DNA of 64,000 nt from Candidatus Cloacimonadota bacterium (GTDB taxonomy: Bacteria; Cloacimonadota; Cloacimonadia; JGIOTU-2): positions 32,001-96,000 of the forward strand of contig JBNGBT010000003.1 of assembly GCA_049903315.1 (NCBI GenBank), written 5' to 3'. The first letter of the stretch is position 1. Every line of letters begins with the position of its first letter. The notes below the pieces were generated by a model. That model saw nothing but the letters and a program-made list of their open reading frames with translations. It was not told the DNA's origin and did no database searches. A program made the position numbers and the translations under genes. Positions 10,581 to 34,279 of this stretch are shown one piece after another.

Positions 10581-10581
10581 A

Positions 10582-11349
10582 TTACTCGTACTTCATCTTC
10601 CAAGCTGCATGATACAGCTTATTGCCAAGAATTCTCTGAATAATAAATTTGATATCCTGTTTGAATTTCATTGATTTCCAGAGTTTCCGATCAAGAGATA
10701 CTATTTTATCAAACAACGCTATTGTGCAATTTCTTTTTATTGGAATCCGCCCAAGAGAAAAGAGATTTGTGTCAGCATCATTCGGGTGATATATAGATGT
10801 GCAAAGTGTGTTGTACCCCGCCTTTTGTGCTGCTGCAACAATTCGTTTATTCCCTCTTCCACCTGGAAGCGAAAGGCTTTTTACAGGTTTTTGAACAATA
10901 TTTTCAAGCTGCTTTTTTGATTTTTCCAACTCATAATATAATTTGTCATCTGCAAGATTTGAGAGAAAGACATGATTTACCGTATGAGAGCCGATTTCCA
11001 TACCTTTTTCTGAGAGTGTGCGTATCTGATCCTCTGTAAATCCCATCTCAGAATTTATCAAAGATGTGGTGACGTAGAAAGTTGCTTTAAAATTAAATTT
11101 CTCCAACTCGGGCAGGCAATATTTAAAATTATTAGAATAACCATCATCAAAGGTCAGGCATACATTTTTTGGGGCGTGTTTCTCAAAAGTTTTTTGTTGC
11201 AACACAAAATCTCTTACTGCGATCACATTATACTCATTCTCTTTTAACAATGCTATCTGTACACGGAACTCATCCTTTGTAATAGTATAAGGGTCACCTT
11301 CAGGTAAGATGTTGTGGTACATCAGAAAAGGAACAGCGCTTTTTGCCAT
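10582..11349 (-). CDS. Polysaccharide deacetylase (CE4)
   Basis: LMYH, LTFDDG, IGSHTVNH, SLPGG. Confidence 0.9.
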   Translation of the reverse strand: MAKSAVPFLMYHNILPEGDPYTITKDEFRVQIALLKENEYNVIAVRDFVLQQKTFEKHAPKNVCLTFDDGYSNNFKYCLPELEKFNFKATFYVTTSLINSEMGFTEDQIRTLSEKGMEIGSHTVNHVFLSNLADDKLYYELEKSKKQLENIVQKPVKSLSLPGGRGNKRIVAAAQKAGYNTLCTSIYHPNDADTNLFSLGRIPIKRNCTIALFDKIVSLDRKLWKSMKFKQDIKFIIQRILGNKLYHAAWKMKYE

Positions 11350-11352
11350 TGT

Positions 11353-13260: not shown

Positions 13261-13264
13261 GATT

Positions 13265-17713: not shown

Positions 17714-19187
17714 TCGATCGCGCTCTTTTTTTATTTTCGTCTATCATATCCTGAATAATTATCATTTTGAGTCTCTGCATAAGGGCGGCAATGATCCAGA
17801 ATTGTCCTGCTATTTCGAGAGAATTCATTCTTGAACCAAACATACATGCAACGGCAAGTCCAATGATACTTCCCATAAAACCAAGAGCACAACCTTTAAA
17901 GAAATTATCTTTTGAATTCCGGAATACCCATAAGGTTGTTAGAAAAACAACCACAAGCAGGGAGAGGAACACCAGTAAGGCGAATAGGCCCATCTCTGCA
18001 GCGATTCTAAGATATGTATTATGGGCATCACGAGGGACATCGATTTCTGAGTAATCCATAATGTAGTAGTTGAACGTTCCAAAACCAAATCCAAGAACAG
18101 GATTTTGCTTTATCATGTTTATTGCGCCCTTCCAGATTATGATTCTATCAGCTGAGCTTTTGTCAACTGTCTCTTCCACGGATTGTTCTAAATAGGTCTG
18201 CTGCTTTGAAAATGTAGACCTAAATCTTCCCTCAATACTCTCAGGTAGTATCGAGGGATTAATGAAGATAAGGATGACAAGGAGGATTCCCGGAATAATC
18301 AACTTTTTGCTTCTTGATATCACCGCAATAAATAAGGTGCCCGTTCCAAATGCAAGCCATGTCCCTCGGGAATATGTAACATGAGCACCTCTTGCACATA
18401 GCAGGAAGAGGAGCATATAAGCCCAGCTTTTAATTTTATGCACATTATAAACAAATACTCCGAGAAGTAAGGGTCCATAATTAACAAAAAAAGTACCAAG
18501 AGTATTTGGATTACCCGCAATTCCACCAATTCTAGCTTTTGTCCACGTTGAAACATTACCAACATCTGCATGTTCACGAAGTGTGATCAAAGCTACGACA
18601 ACAACGGAAATCATGATGATAGTCAAAACCTTTTTAACAGATTCTCTATCTCGCACATTGTTAACAACAACAACATACAAAAACATGGGGACATACCATC
18701 TCCAAAAAATAAAAATTGGACTCTCACCACCAAGATGTCCTAACAAAAAACTTCCTTGTATCAGGGAAATTATACCTAATAGAGCAAAAAGTAACAAAGG
18801 AAAGTTCAAGGGGGTACTTACAAGGAAACGCTCTTTACCTGATTCATGGCTAACGAACCATGCAAATAGTGTGATTAAAAGAAGCGCATTAGTGAAGTTC
18901 ACTGCAGTGGTGAGATCACCAATGATGATTTTACTAAATGGGACATAGAGAGCAATTGCATATATTGGAATTTCTGGTTTACTCAACGAAAAGAAGAAAA
19001 CAAGTGATAAAGCAAAATAACAAAAGGCGATAAACATCCTTGATTCAATATCAAGATAAACGACGATGGCTTGTAAAATGATAAAAAAGGAAACGATAAA
19101 ATAAAATAATCTATTGCTTGTTAAGGATTGTATAGCTGTACCTGATTGGAATCCAGGTGCATAGGTCAATGTTCCTTGGTTTATCAT
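17697..19187 (-). CDS. O-antigen ligase/Wzy polymerase family membrane protein
   Basis: Many TM segments; RIGG...NPN, TYSRG, R...WKGA..MI...P..G.G, AHNTYL...AEMG. Confidence 0.88.
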   Translation of the reverse strand: MINQGTLTYAPGFQSGTAIQSLTSNRLFYFIVSFFIILQAIVVYLDIESRMFIAFCYFALSLVFFFSLSKPEIPIYAIALYVPFSKIIIGDLTTAVNFTNALLLITLFAWFVSHESGKERFLVSTPLNFPLLLFALLGIISLIQGSFLLGHLGGESPIFIFWRWYVPMFLYVVVVNNVRDRESVKKVLTIIMISVVVVALITLREHADVGNVSTWTKARIGGIAGNPNTLGTFFVNYGPLLLGVFVYNVHKIKSWAYMLLFLLCARGAHVTYSRGTWLAFGTGTLFIAVISRSKKLIIPGILLVILIFINPSILPESIEGRFRSTFSKQQTYLEQSVEETVDKSSADRIIIWKGAINMIKQNPVLGFGFGTFNYYIMDYSEIDVPRDAHNTYLRIAAEMGLFALLVFLSLLVVVFLTTLWVFRNSKDNFFKGCALGFMGSIIGLAVACMFGSRMNSLEIAGQFWIIAALMQRLKMIIIQDMIDENKKRARSNEELQ

Positions 19188-19274
19188 ATTAATAAAATCT
19201 TATTCGAAGTATTATTTAAATTACCAGATTAAGTTTTTGAGTATTGATTAGCTTTAATAACAATGAAAAAATTA

Positions 19275-20342
19275 TTATCCCATCTTAGGTATAACTCCCA
19301 CAACAGGAACGCTAAGCAATCTTTCTATGTCAATGGGTTTTTTAACATAATCCTTTAGGAAATCAACCATAATAGGAAGACCGATTGCCACAAAAAGTGC
19401 AAAAATGAATCCGATAAGCCTTGTTTTCATAGTACTGGATCCAGTAGGCTTGTCTGCAACTTGAGGAACATCAATTACTTGAATATCACTTTTAACAAGT
19501 CTATCCCAAACAAGAATTTCTCTTAATTTATTATACCATGCATTATAGTTTGCTCTACAGGACTTGACCTCTGATGAAAGTCTTGCTAGCTCCGGATCGA
19601 TCTGCTCGACCTCCCACTCCTCTTGATAATCATAATGGACGGGAATACCAATATATTGCTTGTATTTGATATAATTTTCTTCTGCAGTGTTGAGTTTTTG
19701 AGATGCAGTTTCAAGTTCTTCTTCAATAAATTTCTTTGCAGATATTGCATCTTCCTTATTTTCTTGTAGATTCATCCCCTGCCAAAGGGTAATATAGGCA
19801 TCAACTATTTCGTAGGAAATTTCCGGATCTTGTGTTGTGGCCGATATTGTAAGCACACCATCTCCCCGATATCTAATAGAGGTGCTTTCTTCAACTCTGG
19901 CAAGAACACTTTTTTCCATTTCTTGCGTACTTTGATTATCATCTGCCGATTTCCCCAAAATTCTCTTAAAAGAATTATAGGCCTTTGTGCCAATTAATTT
20001 TTTAATTCTTTGCATTACCCGTTCTTTTAAATTAAGAGTGTTATACAATTCAAAAAAAGTTTTTTCGGGAAGAGATCTAATTACAGCCTTAGAAAAATCC
20101 AATGAGCGCAAGCGCACCATTTCTTTTGTAATATCAATACGTGATGAGCCGCGCCTGAAAATGATTTCCTCACTCTTTAAAGGCACTTTTTCAATAAATA
20201 GTATTGCCTCACTCTTATAATTAGAAACAATCTCAAAGCTAATAAAAAATATTGGGATAAAAATACATAAGAAGACAATGATAATCTGCTTCTTGTGCTC
20301 CTTAAGTACTTGAGTATATTCGGTTAAGTCAATTTGCTGCAT
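19275..20342 (-). CDS. Polysaccharide co-polymerase / chain length determinant (Wzz/GumC family)
   Basis: N- and C-terminal TMs, coiled-coil middle, IQVID.P, DIERLL.VPVVGVIP. Confidence 0.85.
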   Translation of the reverse strand: MQQIDLTEYTQVLKEHKKQIIIVFLCIFIPIFFISFEIVSNYKSEAILFIEKVPLKSEEIIFRRGSSRIDITKEMVRLRSLDFSKAVIRSLPEKTFFELYNTLNLKERVMQRIKKLIGTKAYNSFKRILGKSADDNQSTQEMEKSVLARVEESTSIRYRGDGVLTISATTQDPEISYEIVDAYITLWQGMNLQENKEDAISAKKFIEEELETASQKLNTAEENYIKYKQYIGIPVHYDYQEEWEVEQIDPELARLSSEVKSCRANYNAWYNKLREILVWDRLVKSDIQVIDVPQVADKPTGSSTMKTRLIGFIFALFVAIGLPIMVDFLKDYVKKPIDIERLLSVPVVGVIPKMG

Positions 20343-20345
20343 ATC

Positions 20346-21011
20346 TTACTTTACCTCTATTATACCTTTTTTCTTCTTCTCCTGAGGAACAAATTTATTA
20401 TTCATTACCACTCCAAAAATGCTGCTTCCTGCCAGATTTATCAACTCATTTGATTTTAATACAGAATTCTTTCTTGTGCGTCTGGCAAGTACGACGAGTA
20501 AAACGATGTCCATTAACGAACTGAGGATCGCAGGATCAATATTTCCTCTGTTAGATGCCAATATTGGAGAAGATTCAACCATGGTAATATCTGCAGACTG
20601 ACGGAATTCTTCTATCACGAATCGCAGATCATTAAAAGATTGAGCAACAATGCCTCCATAGGTTCCGCTTGTGATGATTTTGAGGTTTGGAAAATCTGTG
20701 GTTTTTAAAGCGTCTTCGTAATGGACTTTATCATTGATAATATCAGTAACTCCGTTTTCTTTTGGGAGTCCAAATATTTTATGCAACTGTGGATTTCTGA
20801 GGTTCATGTCTACCAGGAGAATTCTCTGGGGAGTGTTTTTGATGAAATTCAAGGCAAGGTTTACTGCCATGAAGGTTTTTCCTTCTGCATCACCGCTGCT
20901 TGTAAAGAGAATCGTTTTACCATTCTGCTTTTGAATTTCCTTGGAAATAATCTTGTTCATTCTATTGAATTCTACAAAATTATACGTTTTGAGATCTTTT
21001 GTTGGGTTCAT
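20346..21011 (-). CDS. CpsD/CapB-family tyrosine-kinase-like ATPase (degenerate, SypD-like)
   Basis: TSSGDAEGKT, LLVDMNLRNP, GVVMN; no C-terminal tyrosine cluster. Confidence 0.85.
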   Translation of the reverse strand: MNPTKDLKTYNFVEFNRMNKIISKEIQKQNGKTILFTSSGDAEGKTFMAVNLALNFIKNTPQRILLVDMNLRNPQLHKIFGLPKENGVTDIINDKVHYEDALKTTDFPNLKIITSGTYGGIVAQSFNDLRFVIEEFRQSADITMVESSPILASNRGNIDPAILSSLMDIVLLVVLARRTRKNSVLKSNELINLAGSSIFGVVMNNKFVPQEKKKKGIIEVK

Positions 21012-21014
21012 AGT

Positions 21015-22178
21015 TTATTGTTTTGAAAGTAAATAGAGCGTGGAAAATGCAGAAACAAGATATAATAAGTCTTTCAGGAAATCAATTGAGCCTTTCCATG
21101 CCTTGAAAAGCCAGGTCTTTCTTTGCTCTGGCACATAAATTGTCTCACCGGCCCCGACAAATGGAATATCCTGGAAGTTCTTGTTTTCAATAAATTTTTC
21201 AAGATCCACTACTTTTGACCTGTAATTTCCATCTTTTAATTTTTTAACTAAGAAAATATGTTGTAGGTCTGCGCTTGTAGTCGTGCCCCCTGCAGAAATT
21301 AGAACATCGAGAAGGTTGCTGCCCTTAACCGGTTCTAACATGCTGGGATTTCGAACCATTCCTGCAACCCGGATCTTCTCTTCTGTATCAGTTTCAAGTT
21401 TTTCTTGAGGAGGTGTGTATGCACCAAGTGTTCTTTTTATTGAACCCAAGCGAGGTGTCATTGGCACAACGATGATGTCTTTTGATTTTATTTGTGGTAA
21501 TATATTATAGTCCGTAGACGTAAGAAAGGTGAACATGTCCACCAAAATGGTCTTCTGTTCAGCCGATTTCAGATTATACATTGTTCTATACAAGTTAACT
21601 TCATTAAGAATTGAACCATCAATCATGCCGCCGGCAGCAACAAAAGCTCCCTGTATACCAGCATTTTCTGGTAATAGATACCATCCTGGGGTGACCACAT
21701 ATCCTAATACCTGAATGTATTTCTTTTTTTCTTTTATCTGAACTTGAACGTCGTCCTGCTTTCTCAAATAGAGCGGCAGGCTGAAGAATATTGATTTTTC
21801 CAACTCTCCGATAGTGAGCCCTTCTGCCATGAAATTACCGAGTTTTGGAAGTGTAATATATCCTTCAAAGTTAACTTCATATGTGCTGAATTCTTTTTCA
21901 TCAGGCAATTTAATTATAAGGATATCACCACCGGTAATATAATAGGTTCGTTCTTCAGCAGACAAAAAATCAAGGTTGCCATCTTGAAATTGAAGAGATT
22001 TAAATACTTCTGCACTAATCGGAGGATTTAGTCTGCTGAGGCTTAAGGTCACAATACCAGTATCGTCATCAAGAACATCAATACCATCTTTCTGTGACGA
22101 CACCTCTATACCTCCGGCATAAAGCATGCTTGCAAACAACAAAACAGCTATAAAAGAAATCAGGTATTTTTTGGGCAT
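21015..22178 (-). CDS. Polysaccharide export protein with SLBB domains (Wza/SypC-like)
   Basis: Signal peptide; GDIL, G.ITLP.LG, SLBB repeats VLGYV..PG...AAGG and VAGMV.NP...SAGG, C-terminal amphipathic helix. Confidence 0.88.
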   Translation of the reverse strand: MPKKYLISFIAVLLFASMLYAGGIEVSSQKDGIDVLDDDTGIVTLSLSRLNPPISAEVFKSLQFQDGNLDFLSAEERTYYITGGDILIIKLPDEKEFSTYEVNFEGYITLPKLGNFMAEGLTIGELEKSIFFSLPLYLRKQDDVQVQIKEKKKYIQVLGYVVTPGWYLLPENAGIQGAFVAAGGMIDGSILNEVNLYRTMYNLKSAEQKTILVDMFTFLTSTDYNILPQIKSKDIIVVPMTPRLGSIKRTLGAYTPPQEKLETDTEEKIRVAGMVRNPSMLEPVKGSNLLDVLISAGGTTTSADLQHIFLVKKLKDGNYRSKVVDLEKFIENKNFQDIPFVGAGETIYVPEQRKTWLFKAWKGSIDFLKDLLYLVSAFSTLYLLSKQ

Positions 22179-22312
22179 CTATAGAACTCCGCATTTATTT
22201 CATATCTGATGAAATATTTGTCAACTATATTAATATATTATGTACTATTAATATAAGTTTTATACACCGATAAAATGGATATTCTCTCTTTCTTGACATA
22301 CTTTATTTTTGG

Positions 22313-23179
22313 GTGATGAAAGATGTCATGAAACCAAAAAAGATCTTCATGAAAATTAAATTTCGAATATTTATTCTTATAAAAGCATTATTACAGCCAA
22401 TCATTTACTCGAACAAGTTAAAAAAGAAACTAATATTTATTATTGCATGTCAACGTTCCGGAACCAGCATTATGGTTAAGGTATTTGAGAAGGATTTTCG
22501 GACAAAAGTATATGAAGATGAACATAGTGCTATTACATCCGAAGATACTAATAACTTCATCCGTTTTAATTCTTTTGAATCACTCTCTAAGATATTCAAA
22601 AAAGTCCATGCTAAAATAATTATTACAAAACCACTAGTTGAGTTACAGAATATTCTTTCTTTTTTTACATTTTTCCCCGGCTCGGGAGCAATATGGATAT
22701 ACAGAAATTATAAAGATGTTGCTTTCTCAAATATTGCACACTTTGGTGTCAAAAACGGTCACAATAACCTGAGACCTATCTTATCGAACGAGCAAAACAA
22801 CTGGCGCTCTCAAAATCTTCCGGTTGAGATCAGAGAAGTTGTTCAAAAATATTTTGATGAAGAGATGAGCTCTTATGATGCTGCCGCTTTATTCTGGTAT
22901 GTCAGGAATGCCTTGTTTTTTGAGTTGAATCTGGATAAAAGAAACGATGTGACCATGTGTAAGTATGAGGATTTTGTGCAAAAGCCAAAAGATAATATGA
23001 GAAGGATTTACAACTTTTTTCAAATTAACTATCCTGGTGACAAGGTCGTGGATGAAGTCCATGCAAGGGCTACAGGGAAAGGTGAGACTTTAGAATTGTC
23101 CGCTCCAATAGCAGGGCTTTGCAAGAACTTGTATCAAAAAATGGAACAAGCTTACAAAGAGTGTTTAGATAAGCAGTAG
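22313..23179 (+). CDS. Sulfotransferase family protein
   Basis: PAPS-binding QRSGTS, IWIYRNYKDVAFS, KYEDFV..P. Confidence 0.82.
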   Translation: MMKDVMKPKKIFMKIKFRIFILIKALLQPIIYSNKLKKKLIFIIACQRSGTSIMVKVFEKDFRTKVYEDEHSAITSEDTNNFIRFNSFESLSKIFKKVHAKIIITKPLVELQNILSFFTFFPGSGAIWIYRNYKDVAFSNIAHFGVKNGHNNLRPILSNEQNNWRSQNLPVEIREVVQKYFDEEMSSYDAAALFWYVRNALFFELNLDKRNDVTMCKYEDFVQKPKDNMRRIYNFFQINYPGDKVVDEVHARATGKGETLELSAPIAGLCKNLYQKMEQAYKECLDKQ

Positions 23180-23201: not shown

Positions 23202-24335
23202 TTAGAACATTCGGCTTAGTTGCCGTGTCGCGTTCCACTGCAAGTCTTTATAATGATCTATTTTGGTTTTAAGGATATTCTGATATAGCTGAATATTATG
23301 GTAGATTTCGTCCAACAAGGATAAGACATTATTCATTTCTACATGATTTGTTTTTATATTAAATTCTTCCATATCCATTGAGAGCATATAATCAAGACAC
23401 TTCGGTCTGTATTCTAGCATAATTGCTGGCGTATAGGCGCAGTGCGCGAGGATTACAGCATGAAGCTTCATGCCAATTAGGACATCACATCCTGAAAGAA
23501 ATTTTAATGTTTTACTAATTGATTTATACCCGTTAAATATTTTGATTGGTTTATTTATCCTTTGCGCTACTTGTGTTATGACTTTCAAGTCTTTTTCCCA
23601 CACTGGAAAGAGTGTGATATTCCATTCTTCTTTTATAAGCTGATTAATCAGTTCTACAATTTGATCGAATAAATTTTCCTCATTTCCCCATATTCTCCCA
23701 CTGCCGGATCCAAAATTAATGGCGAGTAATTTCTTTTTCTGTTTTCTTATTATGCGGTCACCTGATAATGATAAGGCAAGATCTCCAATTATTTCTACGC
23801 GTTCAAATCCACCATCTGCCAGTATTTTTTTTGAAAGAGGTCCTCTTACACTAACATATTCGCATTGTTCGAGCAATTTGATCCAGTTTGCAATATTATT
23901 TTGCCAACCTTCGACATTGTTCCAAAAGAGAGGATTTTTTACTCCACTGCCCAAAGCAAATTTTATTGAATCAGGGTAATTATCAAAAGCTTTGTTAAAT
24001 GTGTCAAAGGAGCCGGGACTATTAATTAATGTACCTCCTCCGAGAGCAACTGCCTGTAATTTTCTAGGTCGTAACTTATCCTCCAGTCGTGGAAAGTTTT
24101 TGATTGTGCTGTAGGGGAATATCTTGTAATTTGAAAACAATTTTTTAAACGAGTAAATCATTGCTTCATCACCAAGGTTATTATGCCCAACCCAGCCGAT
24201 ATACCCGATTGAATTTTGTGATAGACCGGAAATAGTTCGCCAGTGCGATGCGACAAGCCTAAGCAGTTTTATCCGATTAATAACATCCATTTCCATCATC
24301 CAATATTTCCAAGGAGCGTCTATATGTATATGCAC
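23202..24335 (-). CDS. Polysaccharide pyruvyl transferase family protein (true start may be a later Met)
   Basis: GWVGHNNLGDEA, GGGTLI, SVRGPLS, GMKLHAVI. Confidence 0.85.
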   Translation of the reverse strand: MHIHIDAPWKYWMMEMDVINRIKLLRLVASHWRTISGLSQNSIGYIGWVGHNNLGDEAMIYSFKKLFSNYKIFPYSTIKNFPRLEDKLRPRKLQAVALGGGTLINSPGSFDTFNKAFDNYPDSIKFALGSGVKNPLFWNNVEGWQNNIANWIKLLEQCEYVSVRGPLSKKILADGGFERVEIIGDLALSLSGDRIIRKQKKKLLAINFGSGSGRIWGNEENLFDQIVELINQLIKEEWNITLFPVWEKDLKVITQVAQRINKPIKIFNGYKSISKTLKFLSGCDVLIGMKLHAVILAHCAYTPAIMLEYRPKCLDYMLSMDMEEFNIKTNHVEMNNVLSLLDEIYHNIQLYQNILKTKIDHYKDLQWNATRQLSRMF

Positions 24336-24338: not shown

Positions 24339-25847
24339 TTATTTGATTGCTGCCCTGATTATCAGTCTTTCATCTTTACTGAAGAAAAAATTATAGCTGA
24401 TCAATACAAAAAAGATCGTTTGTATAAAAGCGATAGTAAAAATAATTTTATACGAAGTGGTTAAAAAACCTTTTGAGATAAAATGATAAACAAATAATAT
24501 TAAAGCCGGACGAATAATATTTAAAAGAAACTGCGAATAGTAATGTTTGAGGTCAAGTTGCAAAATTCTAGAAATATATATTGGTTGGATGATAAGTTTC
24601 ATTATCATCATAGGAATTGCCGTTCCCATCGCAACGCCGCTGATTCCAAATTTTTTTACTAAAAGAAGGCTTAGTACTATGTTGAAAACACCCTCAACGA
24701 TATTAGAGTAAGCCCAGAATTTGGTCTTTGAAATACCGTATAGAACAGTTTTAGTCGGGAACTGTGCTAAAAATATTACTGTCGAGATGGTTATTATAAA
24801 TAGAACCTGATATGCATCCGAGTAATTTCCCCCCATCCATCTTAATATGAAATCTTTGCCGTAAAATATTATTGAAAGTCCAATAAATACAGCTATATAT
24901 GTAGACAACTTTGTCATGAACATAAATTTATCTCGGATGGATTGATAGTTCCCTGCCCCATCTTCCTGGCTGATGTATGTTTGGAAAATGCCAGTAGCGT
25001 TTGTGAAGAACATTATGAAATAAACGATTAAACGAAAACCCACATTGTAATGAGTAACTGCAGCTAAACCAATGAAGGTTGTTATAACAATAGTGTCTAC
25101 CTTGAAACGCAATGTATCTGCAAGTTGCGCAATGAAAGTGAAGAATGAATATGAAAACAGAGTTTTGAATTTACTCTTATCAAAATATTTTAATCCAATT
25201 TTGATTGAAGGATATTTAAAAATAACGTAAATTACATGGAATGCAGATATAAAAATGTTGCAAATAAAATAAATCCACGCAATACTAATAAGGCCATTAC
25301 CGCTACTTACAACGATAAAGATCAATCCATTTTTCAATATCAGAATGATAATGTTTGCCAGCTTAGAGACCATATAGTTCATATGTGCATTCAAAATTGC
25401 ACCAAACACACTAATGGGGGGCGAGATCGCAGTATTGATGCCCAAGATCAGTATTATTGTCTGAAACTGTTTCAAACTCAATGGATTTTTTACAATTATT
25501 TTCGCGCCGAATATTAAACCTACGGTTAGAAACAGCATCGCCACAGAAACACCAAGATATATAAAGAAAGAGGTGCTTGTTATCTTCGACATGCCCTCTT
25601 CATTTTTTTCACCGATAGCCCGGGCTAGATACCGAACAACCGCGGTACTGAAACCCATTCTCAGAAGAACATAGTAATCAAGGAAAGTCATTACAAGTAT
25701 CCATAAACCATAAGTTTTGTCACCCAGGTTGTGGATGAGGAACGGGAGCATGAAAAACCCAATGATAATTTGAAGCACAACTGAAATGGTTATGAGAATA
25801 GAACCTCTGAAAAGTTTAACGCCACGATTTTTCACTGATGATTCCAT
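24339..25847 (-). CDS. wzx: Wzx-type flippase
   Basis: Multi-TM MOP-family profile: LG...YGLW, AVVRY, D...I..F.G...V..Y, G..G.A.GT. Confidence 0.88.
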   Translation of the reverse strand: MESSVKNRGVKLFRGSILITISVVLQIIIGFFMLPFLIHNLGDKTYGLWILVMTFLDYYVLLRMGFSTAVVRYLARAIGEKNEEGMSKITSTSFFIYLGVSVAMLFLTVGLIFGAKIIVKNPLSLKQFQTIILILGINTAISPPISVFGAILNAHMNYMVSKLANIIILILKNGLIFIVVSSGNGLISIAWIYFICNIFISAFHVIYVIFKYPSIKIGLKYFDKSKFKTLFSYSFFTFIAQLADTLRFKVDTIVITTFIGLAAVTHYNVGFRLIVYFIMFFTNATGIFQTYISQEDGAGNYQSIRDKFMFMTKLSTYIAVFIGLSIIFYGKDFILRWMGGNYSDAYQVLFIITISTVIFLAQFPTKTVLYGISKTKFWAYSNIVEGVFNIVLSLLLVKKFGISGVAMGTAIPMMIMKLIIQPIYISRILQLDLKHYYSQFLLNIIRPALILFVYHFISKGFLTTSYKIIFTIAFIQTIFFVLISYNFFFSKDERLIIRAAIK

Positions 25848-25877
25848 ATGTATTAAGTTCTCTTGCTTATGATCATT

Positions 25878-27089
25878 TTAATGTGAGAACTTTCTCGTTA
25901 CTTTATACTGTATCTTTTTTATAAACGGTTTAAGATCCATGAAATTCAGAATTGCAAAAGTTTTTTTACCCCTAATTGATTTAAGCCATTGCCAGAACGT
26001 TAATGACTCTTGCGGATACCCCATTCTTTTAAATCCAACAAGGGAGAGAGAGAGGTCGTCAATAAGCGAAACCCATGTAATGTTCTTACTCTTGTTCGTT
26101 TTACAGAACGATTCTCCGAAATAATCTTTGTATAATATCAAAGGCAGATTGATTCCCGAGGCTTTAACGGAATAATTCCAAACGCCACTTCGAGGATTGA
26201 TTTCCATGAGCTTGTATTGACCATCTCGTTCATCCTTTTTAAACTCAATATTTGAGATACCATAAAACTTGGCAGATTTTACGAGTTTCCGACTGAGGTA
26301 TAGAATTTGAGGAACATTGTCTATTCGCCCAGAGGTTATTGTACCTGCAAAAGGAGGATCTTGCCGGATCTTATGCCCAATGGAATAACTAATGATCTCA
26401 TGATTTCTATTAGTATAAGATGTTATGGTATAGAGGTTCTCGACACTTCCGGGGATGAATTCTTGTATAATGAGCGGTTTTTCAGAAAAAATGGTCGTTG
26501 ATAATTTTGCCCCAAAGGATAATAATTCTTGTTTCGAGTTTATTATGAGCACTTTTTTTCCAAATACTTCTGTAAATCCGATTGTGACTGAAGGTTTGAT
26601 AATAACAGGAAAACCAAGTTGTTCGGTTATACGTTCAATATTTTGAGTGTTTCTCACTTCATATGTACGAGGTTTTTTTATTCCAATAGTCTCAGCAAGA
26701 GCATACAACTTTTCTTTATTTATTAAGTTTTCAAGAGTTGACCACCTTGAAGTTGGAAAGCAGTAATATTCTTCTAATAGCTCTTGATTTTTGCTTATTG
26801 AAATAAGAAATTTATCACTAGTCGCTATCAAAAAACCTTTATACTTTAATCTTCTTCCGAAATTCATTAAAAATTTTATAAATGATCTGTTGTCTCCGAT
26901 TGGACTGGGGCAAATGAGTCCTGTTGAATACCTTGAATACAATGCCACATCTGGATACTCTTCAAAGACAAAGGAATGAATACCTTCTTCGCCAAAACTC
27001 CTGACAACCCCCAGTCCATTTATACCACCACCCAGGATAATTGGAATGCTTTTATAGATAGAAGCTGTCGGATTTTTTGTCAAATCCAT
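25878..27089 (-). CDS. ATP-grasp carboxylate-amine ligase (D-aspartate-ligase-like)
   Basis: GGGINGLGVVRSFG, IIKPS, IQEFIPG, KIRQ.P, NIEFKKD.RDG.YKLMEINPR. Confidence 0.88.
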   Translation of the reverse strand: MDLTKNPTASIYKSIPIILGGGINGLGVVRSFGEEGIHSFVFEEYPDVALYSRYSTGLICPSPIGDNRSFIKFLMNFGRRLKYKGFLIATSDKFLISISKNQELLEEYYCFPTSRWSTLENLINKEKLYALAETIGIKKPRTYEVRNTQNIERITEQLGFPVIIKPSVTIGFTEVFGKKVLIINSKQELLSFGAKLSTTIFSEKPLIIQEFIPGSVENLYTITSYTNRNHEIISYSIGHKIRQDPPFAGTITSGRIDNVPQILYLSRKLVKSAKFYGISNIEFKKDERDGQYKLMEINPRSGVWNYSVKASGINLPLILYKDYFGESFCKTNKSKNITWVSLIDDLSLSLVGFKRMGYPQESLTFWQWLKSIRGKKTFAILNFMDLKPFIKKIQYKVTRKFSH

Positions 27090-27093
27090 AACA

Positions 27094-28176
27094 TTAAATT
27101 CTTCTATTGAGCAAATTTAATAATTCGTCATTTGATAACTTGCTCAACCCCAAGTTATTTAAATTACGACCGATTTCTCTGAAGTCAGTTTCTAATAACA
27201 TACTCGCCAGATTAATAATTATCTCTGTATAGTTCATGTACAGGCCGAATTTTTTTCCAATGGCTTCAAGGGGAACTAGTCCGGATGGAATATCTTCAAA
27301 AATATATCGGTGATGCAGCGTTTTCGGAGCGTCGATAGTGGCGTATGATTTAACATTTTGGATACATTCATAAATATTTTTACCATCGACACCATAGCTT
27401 CTTTTAAGCCAACCCGTTAAGGGTTCCACAGGAGAGCCTAGTTTATTTGAGACCTCAATCCTCTCATTGTCTAGATGCTGTAGAAAATGGGCGATACTTT
27501 CCGTTATGCCATTATAATAGTATTTAAAATTCGCATGTTTATATTCTATCCAGCCGGCATTCAGTAAAACCGGAGTACAGTGTAGTATCATGCCAACATT
27601 TCCAATGGAAGTAGCAATCATGGAATCGGTAGGCTTGAAAAAATTTTTCAAACATTGAGGTAAGGCTGTCATTATTCGGTTCAGATCGCTTTTTTTTAAT
27701 GTAGAAATGAGAACATCTTTCTTCACTGCAAGAATTGTTGAGGTATCTTCTGCAATTTTACGGCAAGTAAAAACAATCGTCTGGGTTTCGGCAATTATCG
27801 GGAGTGGTGAGTTTGATTCTCTTAAAGTATTCCCAAAAACAAGAGCACCAAATGTCCTGCCGGGATTAAGAATTATTGGGACATCTGGATCGATGTGTTC
27901 CTTCAAGATATTTGCAATGTCCACATGTGAGTTCGCCGGAGTCGTGACCATTATCAGATCAGTATTCTCGATTGCCTGGTTAATATCAGTAGTAACGACA
28001 TCTAACCTTGCTTCTCCCTGTGAGACACCACCTACTTTAATAGTCTTAGTCTTGATCAATTTTTTGATTGTTTTATGTGATCGATTCCATAATCTAACAG
28101 AGAAGCCGTTCATCGAGAGGTATCCGGAGGTTGCCAAGCCTGAATTCCCTGCTCCAATAACAGTAATATTTTTCAT
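27094..28176 (-). CDS. NAD/NADP-dependent octopine/nopaline (opine) dehydrogenase family protein
   Basis: Rossmann VIGAGNSG, LNPGRTFGA, AETQT, NVGMILH, FKYYYNG, HRYIFEDIPSGLVP. Confidence 0.9.
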   Translation of the reverse strand: MKNITVIGAGNSGLATSGYLSMNGFSVRLWNRSHKTIKKLIKTKTIKVGGVSQGEARLDVVTTDINQAIENTDLIMVTTPANSHVDIANILKEHIDPDVPIILNPGRTFGALVFGNTLRESNSPLPIIAETQTIVFTCRKIAEDTSTILAVKKDVLISTLKKSDLNRIMTALPQCLKNFFKPTDSMIATSIGNVGMILHCTPVLLNAGWIEYKHANFKYYYNGITESIAHFLQHLDNERIEVSNKLGSPVEPLTGWLKRSYGVDGKNIYECIQNVKSYATIDAPKTLHHRYIFEDIPSGLVPLEAIGKKFGLYMNYTEIIINLASMLLETDFREIGRNLNNLGLSKLSNDELLNLLNRRI

Positions 28177-28979
28177 TTTTGCCTTTGCATTTCAAAATTT
28201 TTATTAAAAACAAAGAAGGTATTTCCGTCATGGTCCTTGAAGAATTTGTCCAGAAATTGTGAAAGAAACAAAAGGAGTTCATTAAACCAACGGAATAATA
28301 TACTATTATTTGCCATAAGAATATCAGAGCTGAAAAATAATTTGCCGATCGGTTTAATGATTCTATATCGACATTTATTATAAAATGGAAAGATTATGGT
28401 ATTTTTGTGATGTAATTTCAGATTGTTTTTGTTAAACAGTTCGATATAATCCTGCTCTGTCCTCCTGAACCATTTTGAGCCACTGAAGGATTCAATCCCT
28501 GTGGCCTCAAATAGTAATATTTTTCCAGAATATGTTAGACGATTTGATAGGACCTCAAGCACGTATTTGATTTGTTTGTCAGTTAAATGGGCAAAAACTG
28601 CAAAAATGTATATTATATCAAATTTCGTATGTGCAGGGAATTTGGCAGAAAAAGTAATTTTTCTTTTATGGGCTGAACCTCTTTTTTTCTTTGCTCTTTT
28701 TATCATGCTATGTGCCACATCATAACCCCAGACAGAACAGTTGCTCAGAAGGTTTCTCGTGTAGATAGAATAGAATCCGTCACCGCATCCGAAGTCCAAT
28801 ACTGTTATGTTGTGGCTTTGTTCACTATACTCTGAAATTTCTTTTCCGAGCAGATTGAGTAATACCTTTCTGCGTTGATAGTAATAAGGGATTGGGCTGA
28901 TAGTATAAAAATCTTCTCCCCTGTAATAATATTTTCTTTTTCCTCGGTTTTCCCAATATTCTCTGTTAAAATTAATCAT
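28173..28979 (-). CDS. Class I SAM-dependent methyltransferase
   Basis: VLDFGCGDG, FDII, L...GKILLFE. Confidence 0.85.
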   Translation of the reverse strand: MINFNREYWENRGKRKYYYRGEDFYTISPIPYYYQRRKVLLNLLGKEISEYSEQSHNITVLDFGCGDGFYSIYTRNLLSNCSVWGYDVAHSMIKRAKKKRGSAHKRKITFSAKFPAHTKFDIIYIFAVFAHLTDKQIKYVLEVLSNRLTYSGKILLFEATGIESFSGSKWFRRTEQDYIELFNKNNLKLHHKNTIIFPFYNKCRYRIIKPIGKLFFSSDILMANNSILFRWFNELLLFLSQFLDKFFKDHDGNTFFVFNKNFEMQRQK

Positions 28980-30837
28980 GTTTTACCTCATCTAGTTCCT
29001 TGAGCCTTTCTAGTCTTCGAGTTATTCCAAGTTCCTTACCGTTTTTGTCTACAACTCTGGTGCTTCCATCAATAAATCCTGTTTTCCAGTTTATTGCATT
29101 TGGAAATTCTTCTCGACATCCCCAAAGAAATGGAACGGGGAAATAGCCCTTTCTAAAGATTTCATAGAAGCCGTTTGCTGAATATGGATTTATGATATTT
29201 GTTTCTATGTCACGAATAAGGATCCAGGCTCTGTTCATTAAATCCTCAAATTTTTCCTGCATCAATTTATTATCAATAAAATCACGTATGTTATTTAATT
29301 CTCGATAGTGAGGATAATGTTTGATTGAACTTTTGGTAATTCTAATACTTTCGTTTATAATTTCCGGATTTGCGAGAAACAACGCCTCAGAATAACTTAC
29401 AACATGGATAATTTCGGGGGAGTCTGATTTATTATACTCCACATCGCTCATAAGTGCTGTGACAGCAGACAATTGTCTCTTTGCTTTTTCTAAATCTGGT
29501 GATAGGTAATTTAATCCTGCTCGAGGTTGATAAATCACCTTGAATGCCTTATCTTCAAGTGTTCTCACGGTTTTTAATAAAACTCGTGCTCTGATCAGGT
29601 CTGCCAGTCCGGATGTAAACTTCGGTGTATTTAACATGTTCTGTAAAATCAAGAATCTTATGCCGGACTTTTTTGCCATTTTTGCAGCAATGTATGTAGC
29701 AGCAATATAGGTCACATCATCACCTCCGCGAAAGGCAAAATGATGGGGAACGTTTGGTTCAAAAGGTTTTCCGGTTTTTGCTATGAATTTCAGCGCGTCG
29801 AAATGCTGGGTAAGATTTTCTTTCAGTGTGAGAGGACCTCTACCATCCAATTGATTGAACCACCAGAAAGAGAGAGCGTGCCAAGCCATATTAAGATTTT
29901 TTTCAAGGATTTTTGCCATTGTTTCGACCTTGTTTGTTCCAGAATATGACCTAGTAAGCATTGGAAGAGAATCAGACCAGATGGCTTTTAATTCAAACTC
30001 GGAATTAACAGGAATGCCGCCACCATTTGGTCTGTCTCCCCAATTTTCTCCGAAGTTTGATTGGCTGAGTTGTGATGAACCAACCGATACAATATCTAAT
30101 AATTTGCTCTTCGAAAGCTCTTTTAACCAATCAGAAAATAACGCTAAAGCTTCTTCACGTTTTTTTATATAAGGACCGATATGACATCTTATCAAGGGTA
30201 GGAGGCCATTTTTTTTTGCATAGGACAGCCTATCGATTAGTGTGTCATCTCTCTGCCCAAAATGGGGATAATTATATTCATTGGTAGCAATGGATTTGTG
30301 ATGAAGACCTTGCGTGATCAGCTCATTTCCAAAACCGTATAATATTTTATCATATTGAGATTGTTGTTTATAGGTTTCAGGAATCCTTGCTGATGGAACG
30401 TGGAGTTTCTCAAGAACTTCTGTTATTTTTTCATCACCCATAAACGTAGTAAATCGTCCGTTAAATCGTTGCTCAATCAGATCACAGGCATCTTTTAAAC
30501 CTGCAAAAAACATATTGTCAGCAAGTTTACAATTTTGTGAATGTAGAATTTTACTAGTGTCGATCTTGTGAACCAACGTGCAAAAAATGTCAGCCCCTTC
30601 ATATGGATCGAGCCTGTAACTAAAACCTAAATGAGTTATTCGGTTTTTTAATATCCAATCTTCAATCAACCCGAAGTGTTGATTGCTCGATATTTTGCTT
30701 ACCGCATCTGAAATAAGCTCATTTCCAATGATTACATCGAATCCGCATTGTTCTAGAATTTGCGATATAGTGATAATACCCAAAGTGTGAGCATCGACAC
30801 TTGGCTTGATAATACCAAATCTATAATTATTTTTCAT
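28972..30837 (-). CDS. Cobalamin-binding protein, fused B12-binding domain plus mutase-like barrel (glutamate mutase-like)
   Basis: DxHxxG motif DAHTLG, GFSYRL, FFAG in the N-terminal Rossmann domain; NGGG.P and IIHVVSYSEA in the C-terminal domain; no CxxxCxxC. Confidence 0.8.
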   Translation of the reverse strand: MKNNYRFGIIKPSVDAHTLGIITISQILEQCGFDVIIGNELISDAVSKISSNQHFGLIEDWILKNRITHLGFSYRLDPYEGADIFCTLVHKIDTSKILHSQNCKLADNMFFAGLKDACDLIEQRFNGRFTTFMGDEKITEVLEKLHVPSARIPETYKQQSQYDKILYGFGNELITQGLHHKSIATNEYNYPHFGQRDDTLIDRLSYAKKNGLLPLIRCHIGPYIKKREEALALFSDWLKELSKSKLLDIVSVGSSQLSQSNFGENWGDRPNGGGIPVNSEFELKAIWSDSLPMLTRSYSGTNKVETMAKILEKNLNMAWHALSFWWFNQLDGRGPLTLKENLTQHFDALKFIAKTGKPFEPNVPHHFAFRGGDDVTYIAATYIAAKMAKKSGIRFLILQNMLNTPKFTSGLADLIRARVLLKTVRTLEDKAFKVIYQPRAGLNYLSPDLEKAKRQLSAVTALMSDVEYNKSDSPEIIHVVSYSEALFLANPEIINESIRITKSSIKHYPHYRELNNIRDFIDNKLMQEKFEDLMNRAWILIRDIETNIINPYSANGFYEIFRKGYFPVPFLWGCREEFPNAINWKTGFIDGSTRVVDKNGKELGITRRLERLKELDEVKHD

Positions 30838-30861: not shown

Positions 30862-31860
30862 CTATGTCGTGGGATGTACGAGTGACCACATAAAATGATT
30901 AAAATCAGCTTTTGCTGCAACGCGATTTAATGTAAATATATTTGATTTTCTGTCTACAAAATTGCTGTCTGTTGAGAGAGCTGCATCATAATATTTGCTT
31001 GTTATTTCGACTATTTCATTATTATAATCACCGTTTGGATAACAGAAAAACCTAATTTTTTTGTTAATTTTATTTTCCAATGCAGTTTTAGAATCCCTAA
31101 TCTCGTGTATGCTCTCAGTTCTGGTTAGTTTTGTTAAAATTGGATGCGTGAGTGTATGGGAACCGAATTCAACATATTGCGGTGACATTTTTTTGATCGT
31201 ACTATAATCTAACATACGGTAATTTATTGCATTTTGAGGATCTATCTTAACCTTAAGGTCTTGTTGTATCTGGAGCAGTAATTTAATAAGTTCAGATGGA
31301 TGAAGATTCTTCAATAAATTCTTTAGGATTTTATATGCTTTAGACTTGTCTGTTCTGTTAAGTAGCCTAAAGTACGATTCCCCATTATTAGGGATATTGA
31401 TTTTCAAAGAGTCTATCTTTGTTTGAGAGATGATGTATTCGAGAGTATTGACCCAAATCCATGAATCGCGGTTAATGAAATCTGCTGTTAAGAATATGGA
31501 AACAGGAACGTCGTATTTCTTCAATATGGGATATGCTAATGTATAATTGTTCATATACCCATCATCAAAGGTTAATACTACAGAATATTTGGGTATTGAT
31601 ATTTTCCCATTTAAATAATCTACCAGTTCTTGAAGACTAATAATGTTGTAATACTTTTTAAGATATTTAATCTGCCGTTCAAAAATCGTGATATCAAGAC
31701 TAACATTTATATGATCTCGACTATTCGGCTGGTGAAAATTATGATACATCAAAACAACAATCTTTTGCTTGTTAATTATTCTGAGAGTATGATGAATATG
31801 ACTTTTGCATAAAGAGATCCTTATTGCTTTTTTAATAGTGTCCGATATTGATGTGTTCAT
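30862..31860 (-). CDS. Polysaccharide deacetylase (CE4, IcaB/PgaB-like)
   Basis: LMYH, LTFDDGY, FGSHTLTHPIL, FCYPNG. Confidence 0.9.
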   Translation of the reverse strand: MNTSISDTIKKAIRISLCKSHIHHTLRIINKQKIVVLMYHNFHQPNSRDHINVSLDITIFERQIKYLKKYYNIISLQELVDYLNGKISIPKYSVVLTFDDGYMNNYTLAYPILKKYDVPVSIFLTADFINRDSWIWVNTLEYIISQTKIDSLKINIPNNGESYFRLLNRTDKSKAYKILKNLLKNLHPSELIKLLLQIQQDLKVKIDPQNAINYRMLDYSTIKKMSPQYVEFGSHTLTHPILTKLTRTESIHEIRDSKTALENKINKKIRFFCYPNGDYNNEIVEITSKYYDAALSTDSNFVDRKSNIFTLNRVAAKADFNHFMWSLVHPTT

Positions 31861-31879: not shown

Positions 31880-32794
31880 CTAGGACTTTTTTAACTTCTT
31901 CCCTGGTTTTAGAAGTATTTTGATGAAGGTTTTTACAAGTCGTGCATATAATAACAAATTAAAAGGGAAGAGCCCGATGGCCTTGTAATACTGTGCAAGA
32001 CCTTGCCTATAATCAGATTTCCAAATACAGCTGTCTGCCTTTTGTAGGTGTATTGAGCTCAATGCCCTGTTTCTTAAAAGTTGTAGTCCTCTTTTCGGAG
32101 GACAATATTTATTTACAATATAATACCTTCCCCGAAGCATGCTCTCATAGTTTGCACTCATGCTTGTGCTTCGGTATCTGCCATAATATAGGGGCATATC
32201 AATATATTTCACCTTGTACTTTCTGGCAATTCTGATAAACAGATCGCGATCTTCACAACCAATTTTAGATAGATTAACATCGAACATACCGACATCATCA
32301 ATGCACTTTTTTCTCACCACTGCAGATGAAAGATTGATATGGGCTTTCCTTAACAAAAGGTTGTGATAAATATGCCCAGATAGGTATTTCCCGTTATTAT
32401 TGTGTCTTCCACCCTCGATAATTTTACCATCTTCGGTAATTCGTATTTTCCCACTATGTACCAGCCCAACCGCATTTTCTTTCTCAAGAACCGGAACACT
32501 TTCAGCCAGCAAATTTGGCTTCCATTTGTTGTCGGAATCTAAGAATGAAATATAATCTCCGGTTGATCGGACAATACCATTATTCCTTGCAACTGCCACA
32601 CCCTGATTTTCTTGATATATATAGGATATTTTGCTTATAAATTTACCCAAAACCAGTTTGGTGTTATCTGTCGAGCCATCGTCTACGACAATTACTTCAA
32701 AATCTCTGAATGTCTGATTAAGGACACTTTCGACAGCCTCGGTGATATATTCTGCACAATTATATGTAGGTATGATAATGCTTACTTTTAGCAT
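31880..32794 (-). CDS. Glycosyltransferase family 2
   Basis: VSIIIPTYN, VVDDGSTD, ARNNGI, FLDSD, CEDRD. Confidence 0.93.
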   Translation of the reverse strand: MLKVSIIIPTYNCAEYITEAVESVLNQTFRDFEVIVVDDGSTDNTKLVLGKFISKISYIYQENQGVAVARNNGIVRSTGDYISFLDSDNKWKPNLLAESVPVLEKENAVGLVHSGKIRITEDGKIIEGGRHNNNGKYLSGHIYHNLLLRKAHINLSSAVVRKKCIDDVGMFDVNLSKIGCEDRDLFIRIARKYKVKYIDMPLYYGRYRSTSMSANYESMLRGRYYIVNKYCPPKRGLQLLRNRALSSIHLQKADSCIWKSDYRQGLAQYYKAIGLFPFNLLLYARLVKTFIKILLKPGKKLKKS

Positions 32795-33710
32795 ACAATA
32801 TCCTTTTTAATGTTCGTTTTACGAATATGGGTAATAAACACAGAATGAGATATTTTAATTTGAATGATCGCTTATTGTATTTTCTCGCTTCAAGAAAACT
32901 TTTATATGCTTTCCAATTTTTTCCATGTTCCAGATAGGCATAACCAAACTTCGTGTATAGTTGATTCATCCTTACATCGACATCTTTGCGATTTTCAGCA
33001 TAAAAATTTTTATTATTTTTAATGAATCTTGTGACAGTTTGGATGTCAATTTTCTTATTTAATTCAAAATTTTGCTTGCTCAAACTTTCTGTCCAAACCC
33101 GACGTTCGAACAATTTTTCTTTAACTACTCCTGCCCTAAAATATTTTGCTAACCTGAAAAAGAATTCAAAATCTTCTCCTACCTCGAGGTTTTCGTTAAA
33201 AACACCTGATTGCTTCAGGCATGATCTTTTGAGTATTATAGCAGACGTGATAAGAAAAAAATCCATAAAGAATTCTAATAGAATATTTCCTTCTATCAAT
33301 TTAACTTTTCTCACATAATCATTGATGATCTTTCCATCTTGATCCATGAAATAATTATCGCAGTAGACAAATCCGAACTCGGGATTGAGATTGAATAATG
33401 CCAGTTGTTTTTCAATTTTCTTTGGTAGCCAGCGATCGTCAGCATCTAAAAAGGCAATGTATTCATTATTACTGTTTCGGATGCCAGTATTTCGAGCTGC
33501 TGCGGGTCCTTTTTGCTTTTGATAGAAATAGTTGATCCTTCCGGGAAATGTGTTCACAAATTCCTCAACAATTTTTTTCGTGTCATCCGTTGATCCATCA
33601 TCAACAATAGTAATATACGTATGTTGATGTGTTTGGTGTAAGACACTTTCTATCGCTTCTGAGATATAAATACAATTATATGTGGGTATTATCACATCAA
33701 CATTTCTCAT
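32760..33710 (-). CDS. Glycosyltransferase family 2
   Basis: VIIPTYN, VDDGSTD, GPAAARN, FLDADD, GEDFE; start placed at MRNVDV. Confidence 0.92.
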   Translation of the reverse strand: MRNVDVIIPTYNCIYISEAIESVLHQTHQHTYITIVDDGSTDDTKKIVEEFVNTFPGRINYFYQKQKGPAAARNTGIRNSNNEYIAFLDADDRWLPKKIEKQLALFNLNPEFGFVYCDNYFMDQDGKIINDYVRKVKLIEGNILLEFFMDFFLITSAIILKRSCLKQSGVFNENLEVGEDFEFFFRLAKYFRAGVVKEKLFERRVWTESLSKQNFELNKKIDIQTVTRFIKNNKNFYAENRKDVDVRMNQLYTKFGYAYLEHGKNWKAYKSFLEARKYNKRSFKLKYLILCLLPIFVKRTLKRILYAKSKHYHTYI

Positions 33711-33835
33711 ATTGGTAAATGTGCAAATAAACATTAATATGTCAATATTATAAATACTAAAATAAAAAAATTACTTTACAAACGAACAGCCCTTCCAAGA
33801 ATATATAAATTAATAAATTATAAAGGTGACGCATT

Positions 33836-34267: not shown

Positions 34268-34279
34268 ATAAGTTATAAT

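Follow-up and report, generated by a model that had tools for sequence, protein, structure and literature searches.

What would a coenzyme B12-dependent radical enzyme do in a gene cluster for a surface polysaccharide? The question is raised by a stretch of 64,000 nucleotides from a Candidatus Cloacimonadota bacterium (contig JBNGBT010000003.1, positions 32,001 to 96,000; the whole stretch is called the window here). In it, a predicted B12 radical enzyme, a methyltransferase, an opine dehydrogenase, and an ATP-grasp ligase are encoded side by side inside a Wzx/Wzy-type locus. This module is real and repeatedly assembled, and its B12 radical enzyme is uncharacterised; the reactions are inferred from sequence. 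It is possible, at somewhat less than an even chance, that an acidic amino acid with an N-(1-carboxyethyl) group and a rearranged skeleton is made by the four genes and bound as an amide to an amino sugar in the Wzx/Wzy polysaccharide. The four genes are:

28972..30837, minus strand: predicted single-chain B12 radical enzyme, 621 aa (fold and profile matches)
28173..28979, minus strand: class I S-adenosylmethionine (SAM) methyltransferase, 268 aa (PF08242, 1.9e-12)
27094..28176, minus strand: opine dehydrogenase, 360 aa (Octopine_DH PF02317, 2.2e-42)
25878..27089, minus strand: ATP-grasp carboxylate-amine ligase, 403 aa (PF02786, 6e-9; PF15632, 7.5e-8)

All four stand at these coordinates in the list of open reading frames (ORFs) of the window. 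A sequence-only reading of the window had described four packed minus-strand genes between glycosyltransferase family 2 (GT2)/deacetylase genes and the Wzx flippase. The packing is confirmed, with overlaps of 8 nt and 4 nt and then a gap of 4 nt (spacings −8, −4, and +4), and so is the setting, by a Pfam scan of the locus. The ligase gene is 30 nt from the flippase gene, and the mutase-like gene is 24 nt from the upstream deacetylase gene. The module genes are single-copy in the genome, except for the ligase gene, which has a 28% paralogue. The closest named homologues are in Ca. Cloacimonetes (64% for the mutase-like protein, 65% for the ligase, and 62% for the methyltransferase).

The 621-aa protein has no sequence match in Pfam, NCBIfam, or PDB. 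Its family comprises 2,973 clusters (90% identity) at E≤0.001 among 7,999 candidates, and is seen in 486 GTDB stretches. An N-terminal B12-binding domain (residues ~1–150) is joined to a GlmE-like TIM barrel (~190–611). The B12 domain contains the motifs D15-x-H17-x-x-G20, S73-Y-R-L76, and A112-G113; among 87 aligned homologues, D15/H17 are conserved in 85/87, G20 in 86/87, and S73 and L76 in 87/87. With the broadened alignment only, the N-terminus gives profile matches to B12-binding domains (4jgi, 1.5e-5; 2yxb, 1.1e-4). The assignment as a cobalamin protein, made earlier from the DxHxxG motif, holds because the motif, these profile matches, and the fold agree.

The AlphaFold2 (AF2) model of the protein has a pLDDT of 90.3, and its best Foldseek match is the glutamate mutase E chain 1cb7_B (E 2.3e-11). 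In VIA-align the predicted model matches glutamate mutase with Z 26.6 and a root-mean-square deviation of 3.6 over 378 aligned residues. The top 18 rows are all adenosylcobalamin (AdoCbl) mutases, and those of IcmF cover residues 1–587 of the model, i.e., both domains. The runners-up are lysine and ornithine aminomutases (Z 25.8–22.9), while the acyl-coenzyme A (acyl-CoA) mutases (MCM/ICM/HCM) match more weakly (Z up to 18.5 vs. 26.6). The barrel is aligned to the GlmE profile by hhalign (P 95.6%, E 1.2e-8; numbering checked against 6h9e_B). Based on the modelled fold, the 621-aa protein is a predicted relative of the His-on AdoCbl radical mutases, closest to GlmE and resembling GlmS and GlmE in a single chain. 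The kinship with B12 carbon-skeleton mutases that the sequence-only reading had proposed is thus supported by the fold and the GlmE profile match. No match to PF06368 above the cut-off is present in the protein or in its genome, and a distant relative, P0158, barely passes at 27.5 bits. Met_asp_mut_E is the sole Pfam barrel family matched by relatives (2/21 scanned). Among these 21 distant or long relatives, fusions to GlmL/MutL (3/21) and to a RimK/GshB-type ATP-grasp (1/21) are seen. The fused members are P0166, P0224, P0181, P0158, P0165, and P0255; besides the three with GlmL/MutL and the one with RimK/GshB ATP-grasp, two contain dehydrogenase pieces, possibly gene-calling artefacts.

The pocket of the barrel is only partly like that of GlmE. 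GlmE E330, which we take to be the glutamate beside the adenosyl ribose, corresponds in the profile alignment to E484, invariant in 87/87, and GlmE G68 corresponds to the invariant G221. In PMC10947579, G68 has a role with adenosine, the claw of R66, R100, and R149 holds the substrate, and E171 binds its amine. The claw is replaced by H219, Q259, and Y298, the same residues across locus contexts. At E171 the alignment is gapped, and the strand 319–327 (WHALSFWWF) contains no acidic residue. As the arginine claw and E171 are absent, the substrate should differ from that of glutamate mutase. Five arginines, R217, R296, R333, R370, and R439, are invariant in 87/87 close homologues; in the loci discussed below, R370 and residues 319–326 are conserved by construction, having served as search patterns. 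R217 and R296 are placed two residues ahead of the positions equivalent to R66 and R149, which might make the pocket deeper and suited to a polyacid of larger size. The pocket residues are identical in glycan and non-glycan contexts.

Lysine 5,6-aminomutase (5,6-LAM) and ornithine 4,5-aminomutase (4,5-OAM) (1XRS, 8T0V, 3KOW) resemble the protein in the barrel and the His-on B12 domain, and differ in domain order and partners. They bind pyridoxal phosphate (PLP) through a lysine, presumably located ~11 residues past the cobalt histidine. At this position 110 sequences of the family contain L (97), I (10), V (2), or A (1), and lysine is seen in none of them. A PLP-dependent aminomutase was rejected on this ground (0/110).

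The genome contains a match to the CobA/BtuR adenosyltransferase and a methylmalonyl-CoA-mutase-like gene pair, and a PduO-type adenosyltransferase was not found in it. AdoCbl is plausibly supplied in this host. Two GlmL/MutL homologues are present on another contig (G000:C69:16659-18098 and 63084-64553), in a genome with no GlmE match.

The opine dehydrogenase aligns to the Arthrobacter enzyme CENDH (1bg6_A, E 1.8e-59). Its R107/G195 correspond to R111/G198 in ArODH numbering, and its R32 to position 35. According to the accessible part of Telek et al. 2024 (PMC10787698), the R111/G198 pair shifts specificity to Asp/Glu with pyruvate, R35 marks the use of NADPH, and dehydrogenases of the R111/G198 type accept several acidic amino acids; cobalamin, B12, and genomic context are not mentioned in that part. 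The mODH of that study and CENDH 1BG6 share the fold family and the R111/G198 and R35 signature with the window dehydrogenase, the natural substrate of which may, unlike that of mODH, be a rearranged acid. R111 is present in 73/73 and G198 in 72/73 of the aligned partner dehydrogenases, a count that covers partners of at least ~300 aa and, for those found elsewhere in genomes, the 5 of 11 recovered. The dehydrogenase is predicted to belong to the acidic-amino-acid subclass and to accept NADPH.

Opine metallophore systems have a nicotianamine-synthase-like gene beside the dehydrogenase. At E≤0.01, none of the 23 locus proteins scanned belongs to such a Pfam family, and a PDB search with the dehydrogenase returned no cntM structure. 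A metallophore pathway of the staphylopine/pseudopaline type was rejected because the nicotianamine-synthase-like gene is missing from the locus scanned. PMC7438024, on opine zincophores, does not mention cobalamin, ATP-grasp, or polysaccharide.

The closest partners are of different types: the dehydrogenase is ~54% identical to a Bacillota-type and the mutase-like protein ~55% to an Aminicenantes-type homologue, which suggests a mosaic origin of the pair. Long forms in which a phosphotransferase system (PTS) EIIA domain is fused to the opine dehydrogenase are located beside AsnB-type genes (L052:8122-9813, L063:450-2078, L066:8301-9971). MscS channel genes occur in loci related to these, a hint that the role may be that of a regulated osmolyte system. 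At L242:1912-12402 (G043:C1), an opine dehydrogenase gene occurs in the absence of the B12 gene. Its neighbours there are DegT, PGA_cap, and flippase-like genes and one gene of 442 aa that Pfam does not match; this locus may make an alanopine-type substituent.

The gene neighbourhoods indicate how far the module extends beyond the window. The sample consists of the best 80 of 486 GTDB stretches and the best 80 of at least 575 metagenome stretches, and is biased to close relatives. These 160 loci were dereplicated at 90% to 112, of which 69 have 1.5 kb on both sides (43 were dropped), and neighbour genes were identified by tblastn. In the 69 well-flanked loci, a dehydrogenase is found within 3 kb in 42; glycan markers are seen in 16, one of them the window relative L091 (90%), and in none of the other 53. 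An ATP-grasp gene lies within 3 kb in 15/16 glycan loci vs. 0/53 others. In the remaining glycan locus, L115, the ATP-grasp is PylC-like and matches no other locus, so that ATP-grasps from unrelated families are seen in 16/16, within about 2.5 kb. Fisher's test for ATP-grasp and glycan context gives a naive p of 3e-14, kin not being independent. DegT is present in 11 of the 15 glycan loci whose ATP-grasp gene is no more than 3 kb away. At a cut-off of 4 kb, AsnB-type genes are seen in 8/53 non-glycan and 0/16 glycan loci; two glycan loci, L028 and L111, have them farther out. On the FastTree tree the glycan label changes 11 times, seven of the changes being forced by starred branches.

The methyltransferase family is small, with 12 matches at E≤1e-15, itself included. 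It is found in 9/160 loci, in 9/9 of which an ATP-grasp gene and a glycan marker are also present, and in 6/69 of the well-flanked loci, each with the ligase and glycan markers. Its nearest folds are amine N-methyltransferases, with a weak TM of about 0.55. Several homologues of the ligase carry the automatic JGI label D-aspartate ligase. Relatives of the ligase are present in 28/232 genomes of the phylum, and the two closest, in G003 (65%) and G309 (43%), the latter the nearest from another genus, follow a dehydrogenase gene. Many loci of ~30% relatives in Cloacimonadota have glycan-type neighbours. The ligases of the module are barely related to one another (25% over 127 aa between the window and L031), and these unrelated ligases therefore point to repeated recruitment.

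Eight of the 232 genomes of the phylum contain a mutase-like gene, and PF02317 is present in 8/8 of these vs. 8 of the other 224. Among the eight, glycan loci are seen in G000, G003, and G309, and the pair with little context in G017 and G343. Ten genomes were chosen because no dehydrogenase was called beside the mutase; 10/10 have one (controls 0/14), and in one of them, G070 (L068), it is in fact adjacent. The same four-gene order is seen in G003 and L091, and the order mutase–opine dehydrogenase–ligase–deacetylase in G309, from another family, with the deacetylase directly after the ligase. All four genes are present in other orders in L031 (Polaribacter marinus) and L076. Since the arrangement recurs in G003, L091, G309, L031, and L076, it is not due to chance. 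The sequence-only reading is supported in this respect: dehydrogenase, ligase, and methyltransferase accompany the B12 gene in glycan loci of many phyla. The glycan setting itself stands in part: the ligase and methyltransferase are glycan-specific, and the mutase–dehydrogenase pair lies mostly outside glycan loci, half of what that reading had named as evidence against itself. These facts indicate that the pair is a general module, of which only the ligase and methyltransferase are glycan-specific additions. The loci L088, L238, and L239 (G012, G333, and G337) contain a racemase-like gene that is alanine-racemase-like. G012 further encodes a GNAT and a radical-SAM protein there; its mutase-like gene is split into two ORFs.

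The amide-forming partners of the pair (D-Asp-ligase-like, other ATP-grasps, and AsnB) are all consistent with side-chain carboxyl chemistry. Because the partners suit such chemistry, the dehydrogenase appears to prefer Asp/Glu, and the B12 enzyme resembles GlmE apart from its rebuilt pocket, the following route is favoured. The dehydrogenase would couple pyruvate with L-glutamate (or L-aspartate) using NADPH, as inferred from a residue signature that has been tested in related enzymes. The AdoCbl enzyme would then rearrange the opine skeleton in the manner of glutamate mutase, giving N-(1-carboxyethyl)-3-methylaspartate, with the invariant R217, R296, R439, R333, and R370 of the rebuilt pocket holding three carboxylates. 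The ligase would convert the side-chain carboxyl into an acyl phosphate and join it to a free amino sugar. The amine of this sugar could be provided by a cytoplasmic deacetylase in the window locus, where the NodB-type deacetylase upstream of the mutase-like gene has no signal or membrane segment (maximum hydropathy 0.87), and by the DegT aminotransferase in other loci. The methyltransferase might methylate the substituent, possibly at the secondary amine; this optional step is the weakest of the route. Outside glycan loci, the pair would supply the same acid to other amide-forming enzymes.

As a precedent, the sequence-only reading had cited N-(1-carboxyethyl)-amino acid amides of uronic acids, in which the opine is an amine donor. 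This fits poorly: an Asp/Glu opine has a secondary amine only, and as ligases of the kind encoded here activate carboxylates, the opine is more likely an acyl donor to an amino sugar. A uronic-acid amide was rejected for want of a free primary amine.

The product of the pair probably ends up on the glycan. That it does so after a skeleton rearrangement at the opine level is conceivable but a little more doubtful than its absence, and the exact structure, an N-(1-carboxyethyl)-3-methylaspartate amide on an amino sugar, should be taken as a rather speculative guess. Tentatively, and with more reserve than conviction, it can be proposed that the enzyme represents a new AdoCbl mutase class whose substrate is an N-alkylated amino acid (an opine), rearranged without the help of CoA or PLP; that this is the first step of the B12-radical type in the biosynthesis of a surface polysaccharide; and that many phyla have repeatedly paired the mutase with unrelated ATP-grasp ligases, placing a branched tricarboxylic opine, sometimes methylated, on amino sugars.

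A parallel is seen in the same genus. At L226:8737-12532 (G005:C6), a true fused GlmS-GlmE is encoded between ATP-grasp and GNAT genes in a Wzx/Wzy locus that also has LicD and DegT-like genes. It is 41% identical to GlmE, keeps R66, R100, R149, E171, and E330, and is the only GlmE over the cut-off in the 232 genomes of the phylum. A deacetylase-like gene of this locus is 35% identical to its counterpart in the window. The arrangement suggests a decoration in which methylaspartyl is capped by acetyl instead of carboxyethyl (N-acetyl-3-methylaspartyl).

Several observations weigh against the rearrangement of an opine for the glycan. Most of the loci (53/69) are outside glycan loci, and because the pocket does not differ in its residues between the two settings, the reaction would not be glycan-specific. 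The pair of G012, G333, and G337 is located outside glycan loci, accompanied by a gene for a Ddl-like ATP-grasp and by another that is racemase-like. The independent-pairs test of ligase against glycan context is not significant (7 pairs, median p 0.125). Judged from ORF starts, no dehydrogenase was recognised within 1.5 kb in 27/29 of the loci listed for ~30%-identical ligase relatives, so that the ligase could act on a substrate of its own. Regarding the enzyme, the lysine and ornithine aminomutases nearly equal GlmE in VIA-align score, and the mapping of GlmE residues is a profile alignment at 14% identity rather than inspected coordinates. The claw and E171 of GlmE are unconserved, so a glutamate-type rearrangement is not assured. 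The G005 mutase is a single case and possibly broken, as it has one in-frame stop (TAA). In a second phylum, that of G066, no GlmE is seen in glycan loci; its 401 genomes have one GlmE, in a fermentation operon.

Some of these points would suit an uncoupled system, in which the pair makes a free small molecule, a compatible solute or other, and the ligase independently transfers a common amino acid, aspartate for instance, to the glycan. Ligase relatives do exist where the mutase–dehydrogenase pair is absent, PTS-EIIA–dehydrogenase fusions are seen in 3/3 long forms scanned, and MscS channels (6/69) and AsnB-type genes (8/69) occur among loci that mostly have no glycan markers. We consider this unlikely, since it leaves aside the ATP-grasps of unrelated families that accompany the pair in 16/16 glycan loci, the overlapping genes of the window, and a module-specific methyltransferase confined to the glycan version. 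In 20 non-glycan loci, Rfam also detects no riboswitch ahead of the pair; its sole match, nhaA-I in L052, is on the opposite strand. A catabolic role, in which the dehydrogenase oxidises an imported opine, the B12 enzyme feeds fermentation, and the placement in the locus is incidental, is far-fetched by comparison. Known B12 amino-acid mutases are mostly fermentative, and some Bacillota copies adjoin amino-acid ABC transporter or arginase genes. It would leave unexplained why the pair is found again and again among ligase, aminotransferase, and flippase genes across many phyla, and Pfam finds no methylaspartase-like or other fermentation gene in the window locus.

The order and the kind of the rearrangement can also be questioned. 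The mutase could act first, converting free L-glutamate to 3-methylaspartate before pyruvate capping and ligation, with the same end product as the route through the opine. This order had been assumed in the sequence-only reading, and GlmE is indeed the nearest fold, such dehydrogenases accept several acidic amino acids, and the G005 locus, with its true glutamate mutase, GNAT, and ligase, follows the same logic. It is improbable, and not favoured, in view of the replacement of the residues by which GlmE holds glutamate, including the loss of any acidic residue from the E171 strand. Moreover, an enzyme acting on free glutamate should manage without a fixed dehydrogenase partner of the kind seen in 8/8 mutase-bearing genomes of the phylum and 10/10 picked genomes. 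A different radical rearrangement, e.g., a 1,2-nitrogen shift that dispenses with PLP and leads to a β-amino acid or an N-(2-carboxyethyl) product to be ligated, is hardly more credible. The aminomutase barrels score close to GlmE (Z 25.8–22.9 vs. 26.6), the pocket is unlike that of GlmE, and the radical-SAM gene of G012, which by its motifs we take to be KamA (lysine 2,3-aminomutase-like), adjoins the pair. Opposed to this are L/I/V/A in 110/110 at what is presumably the PLP-lysine position and Met_asp_mut_E as the only Pfam barrel family matched by relatives. Rearrangement of the opine, followed by ligation to an amino sugar, is kept as the favoured route.

How does the module compare with known systems? 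With glutamate mutase GlmS/GlmE (EC 5.4.99.1; 1CB7, 6H9E; PF02310 and PF06368), the 621-aa protein shares the DxHxxG Rossmann domain, the (β/α)8 barrel, and the equivalents of G68 and E330, and some of its relatives are likewise fused to GlmL/MutL. It differs in being one chain with the B12 domain first, in its low identity (13–14%), in the missing PF06368 match, in its fixed opine dehydrogenase partner, and in its biosynthetic gene context. A predicted B12-dependent family was described by Zhang et al. 2009 (PMC2667541) as invariably adjacent to PF02317, with D-Ala-D-Ala ligase and asparagine synthase genes nearby in some cases; the part of that article seen gives it no reaction, mutase assignment, or link to glycan loci. 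The distant N-terminal B12 domain and the PF02317, Ddl-like, and AsnB-type neighbours are all seen in the loci examined here, a likeness of descriptions rather than of sequences; in the window, the methyltransferase separates the mutase-like gene from the dehydrogenase.

The D-aspartate ligase Aslfm/AslA, reviewed with AsnH in PMC4155827, is an ATP-grasp enzyme that activates the aspartate β-carboxyl and uses D-Asp, produced by RacD, to acylate a lysine in the stem peptide of peptidoglycan. The window ligase shares the ATP-grasp fold, and a possible kinship to Aslfm is drawn from the automatic labels of homologues; it differs in lying in a Wzx/Wzy locus, with no racemase among the 23 locus genes scanned (the search did not extend to the genome). 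For the proposed product, the nearest analogues are Providencia O-antigens, tabulated in PMC10609480. The part of this review seen lists an alanopine amide on Qui4N (4-amino-4,6-dideoxyglucose) in O35, N-acetyl-aspartyl-Qui4N in O33/O4, and N-ε-carboxyethyl-lysine on GalA in O14. These are N-capped amino acids amide-linked to sugars, and O35 has an opine as the acyl group on an amino sugar; no Asp/Glu-type opine, branched skeleton, or need for a B12 step appears in the rows seen.

No B12-dependent step in surface-glycan biosynthesis was found described in the literature searched. Nor was any report found on the reaction or a glycan role of the B12 family, in a search that covered thinly the subscription journals with many O-antigen structures. 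Few AdoCbl carbon-skeleton mutases are known, to our knowledge. The family was flagged in 2009 and is still without an assigned reaction, and its glycan version opens the reaction to experiment: the product should be bound in stoichiometric amounts to an isolable polysaccharide, the signature of the dehydrogenase narrows the substrates to a handful, and a cultured strain, Polaribacter marinus MSW13 (L031), holds all four genes. If the proposal is true, it would mean a new radical reaction and a surface-antigen structure tied to the supply of B12. It would also predict a glycan substituent not among the structures in the seen part of the review tables of PMC10609480.

The rest of the locus, which spans 9423-33734, is composed as follows:

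31880..33734, minus strand: two GT2 glycosyltransferases at the start of the gene run (PF00535, 1.5e-35 and 4.2e-33)
30862..31860, minus strand: NodB-type polysaccharide deacetylase (PF01522, 3.6e-25)
24339..25847, minus strand: Wzx-type flippase (PF01943, 6.6e-15; PF13440, 3.5e-10)
23202..24335, minus strand: polysaccharide pyruvyl transferase (PF04230, 4.6e-30)
9423..23179, mixed strands: remainder of the Wzx/Wzy-type locus (ORFs and Pfam)

The last of these contains Wza-like export, Wzz-like, kinase-like, and Wzy/O-ligase-like genes, GT4s, a deacetylase-like gene, a second NodB deacetylase, and a GT2. No DegT aminotransferase was found by Pfam in the locus. A sulfotransferase gene (22313-23179, plus strand) is inverted within the minus-strand locus, and G003 (L227) has the same inversion; sulfate and pyruvyl groups may also be present on the polysaccharide. 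The deacetylase-like gene (13265-14251, minus strand; 328 aa) has no Pfam match and is the one with 35% identity to a gene in the glutamate-mutase locus of G005. The sole match of a 635-aa protein (11353-13260, minus strand) is a weak PcRGLX-like one. Divergent plus-strand genes at 33836-37907 encode proteins of 143 aa and 621 aa with no Pfam match and a β-helix protein of 583 aa; these genes are kept beside the G003 locus. The sole Rfam match in the window is a tRNA at 59751-59823 on the minus strand.

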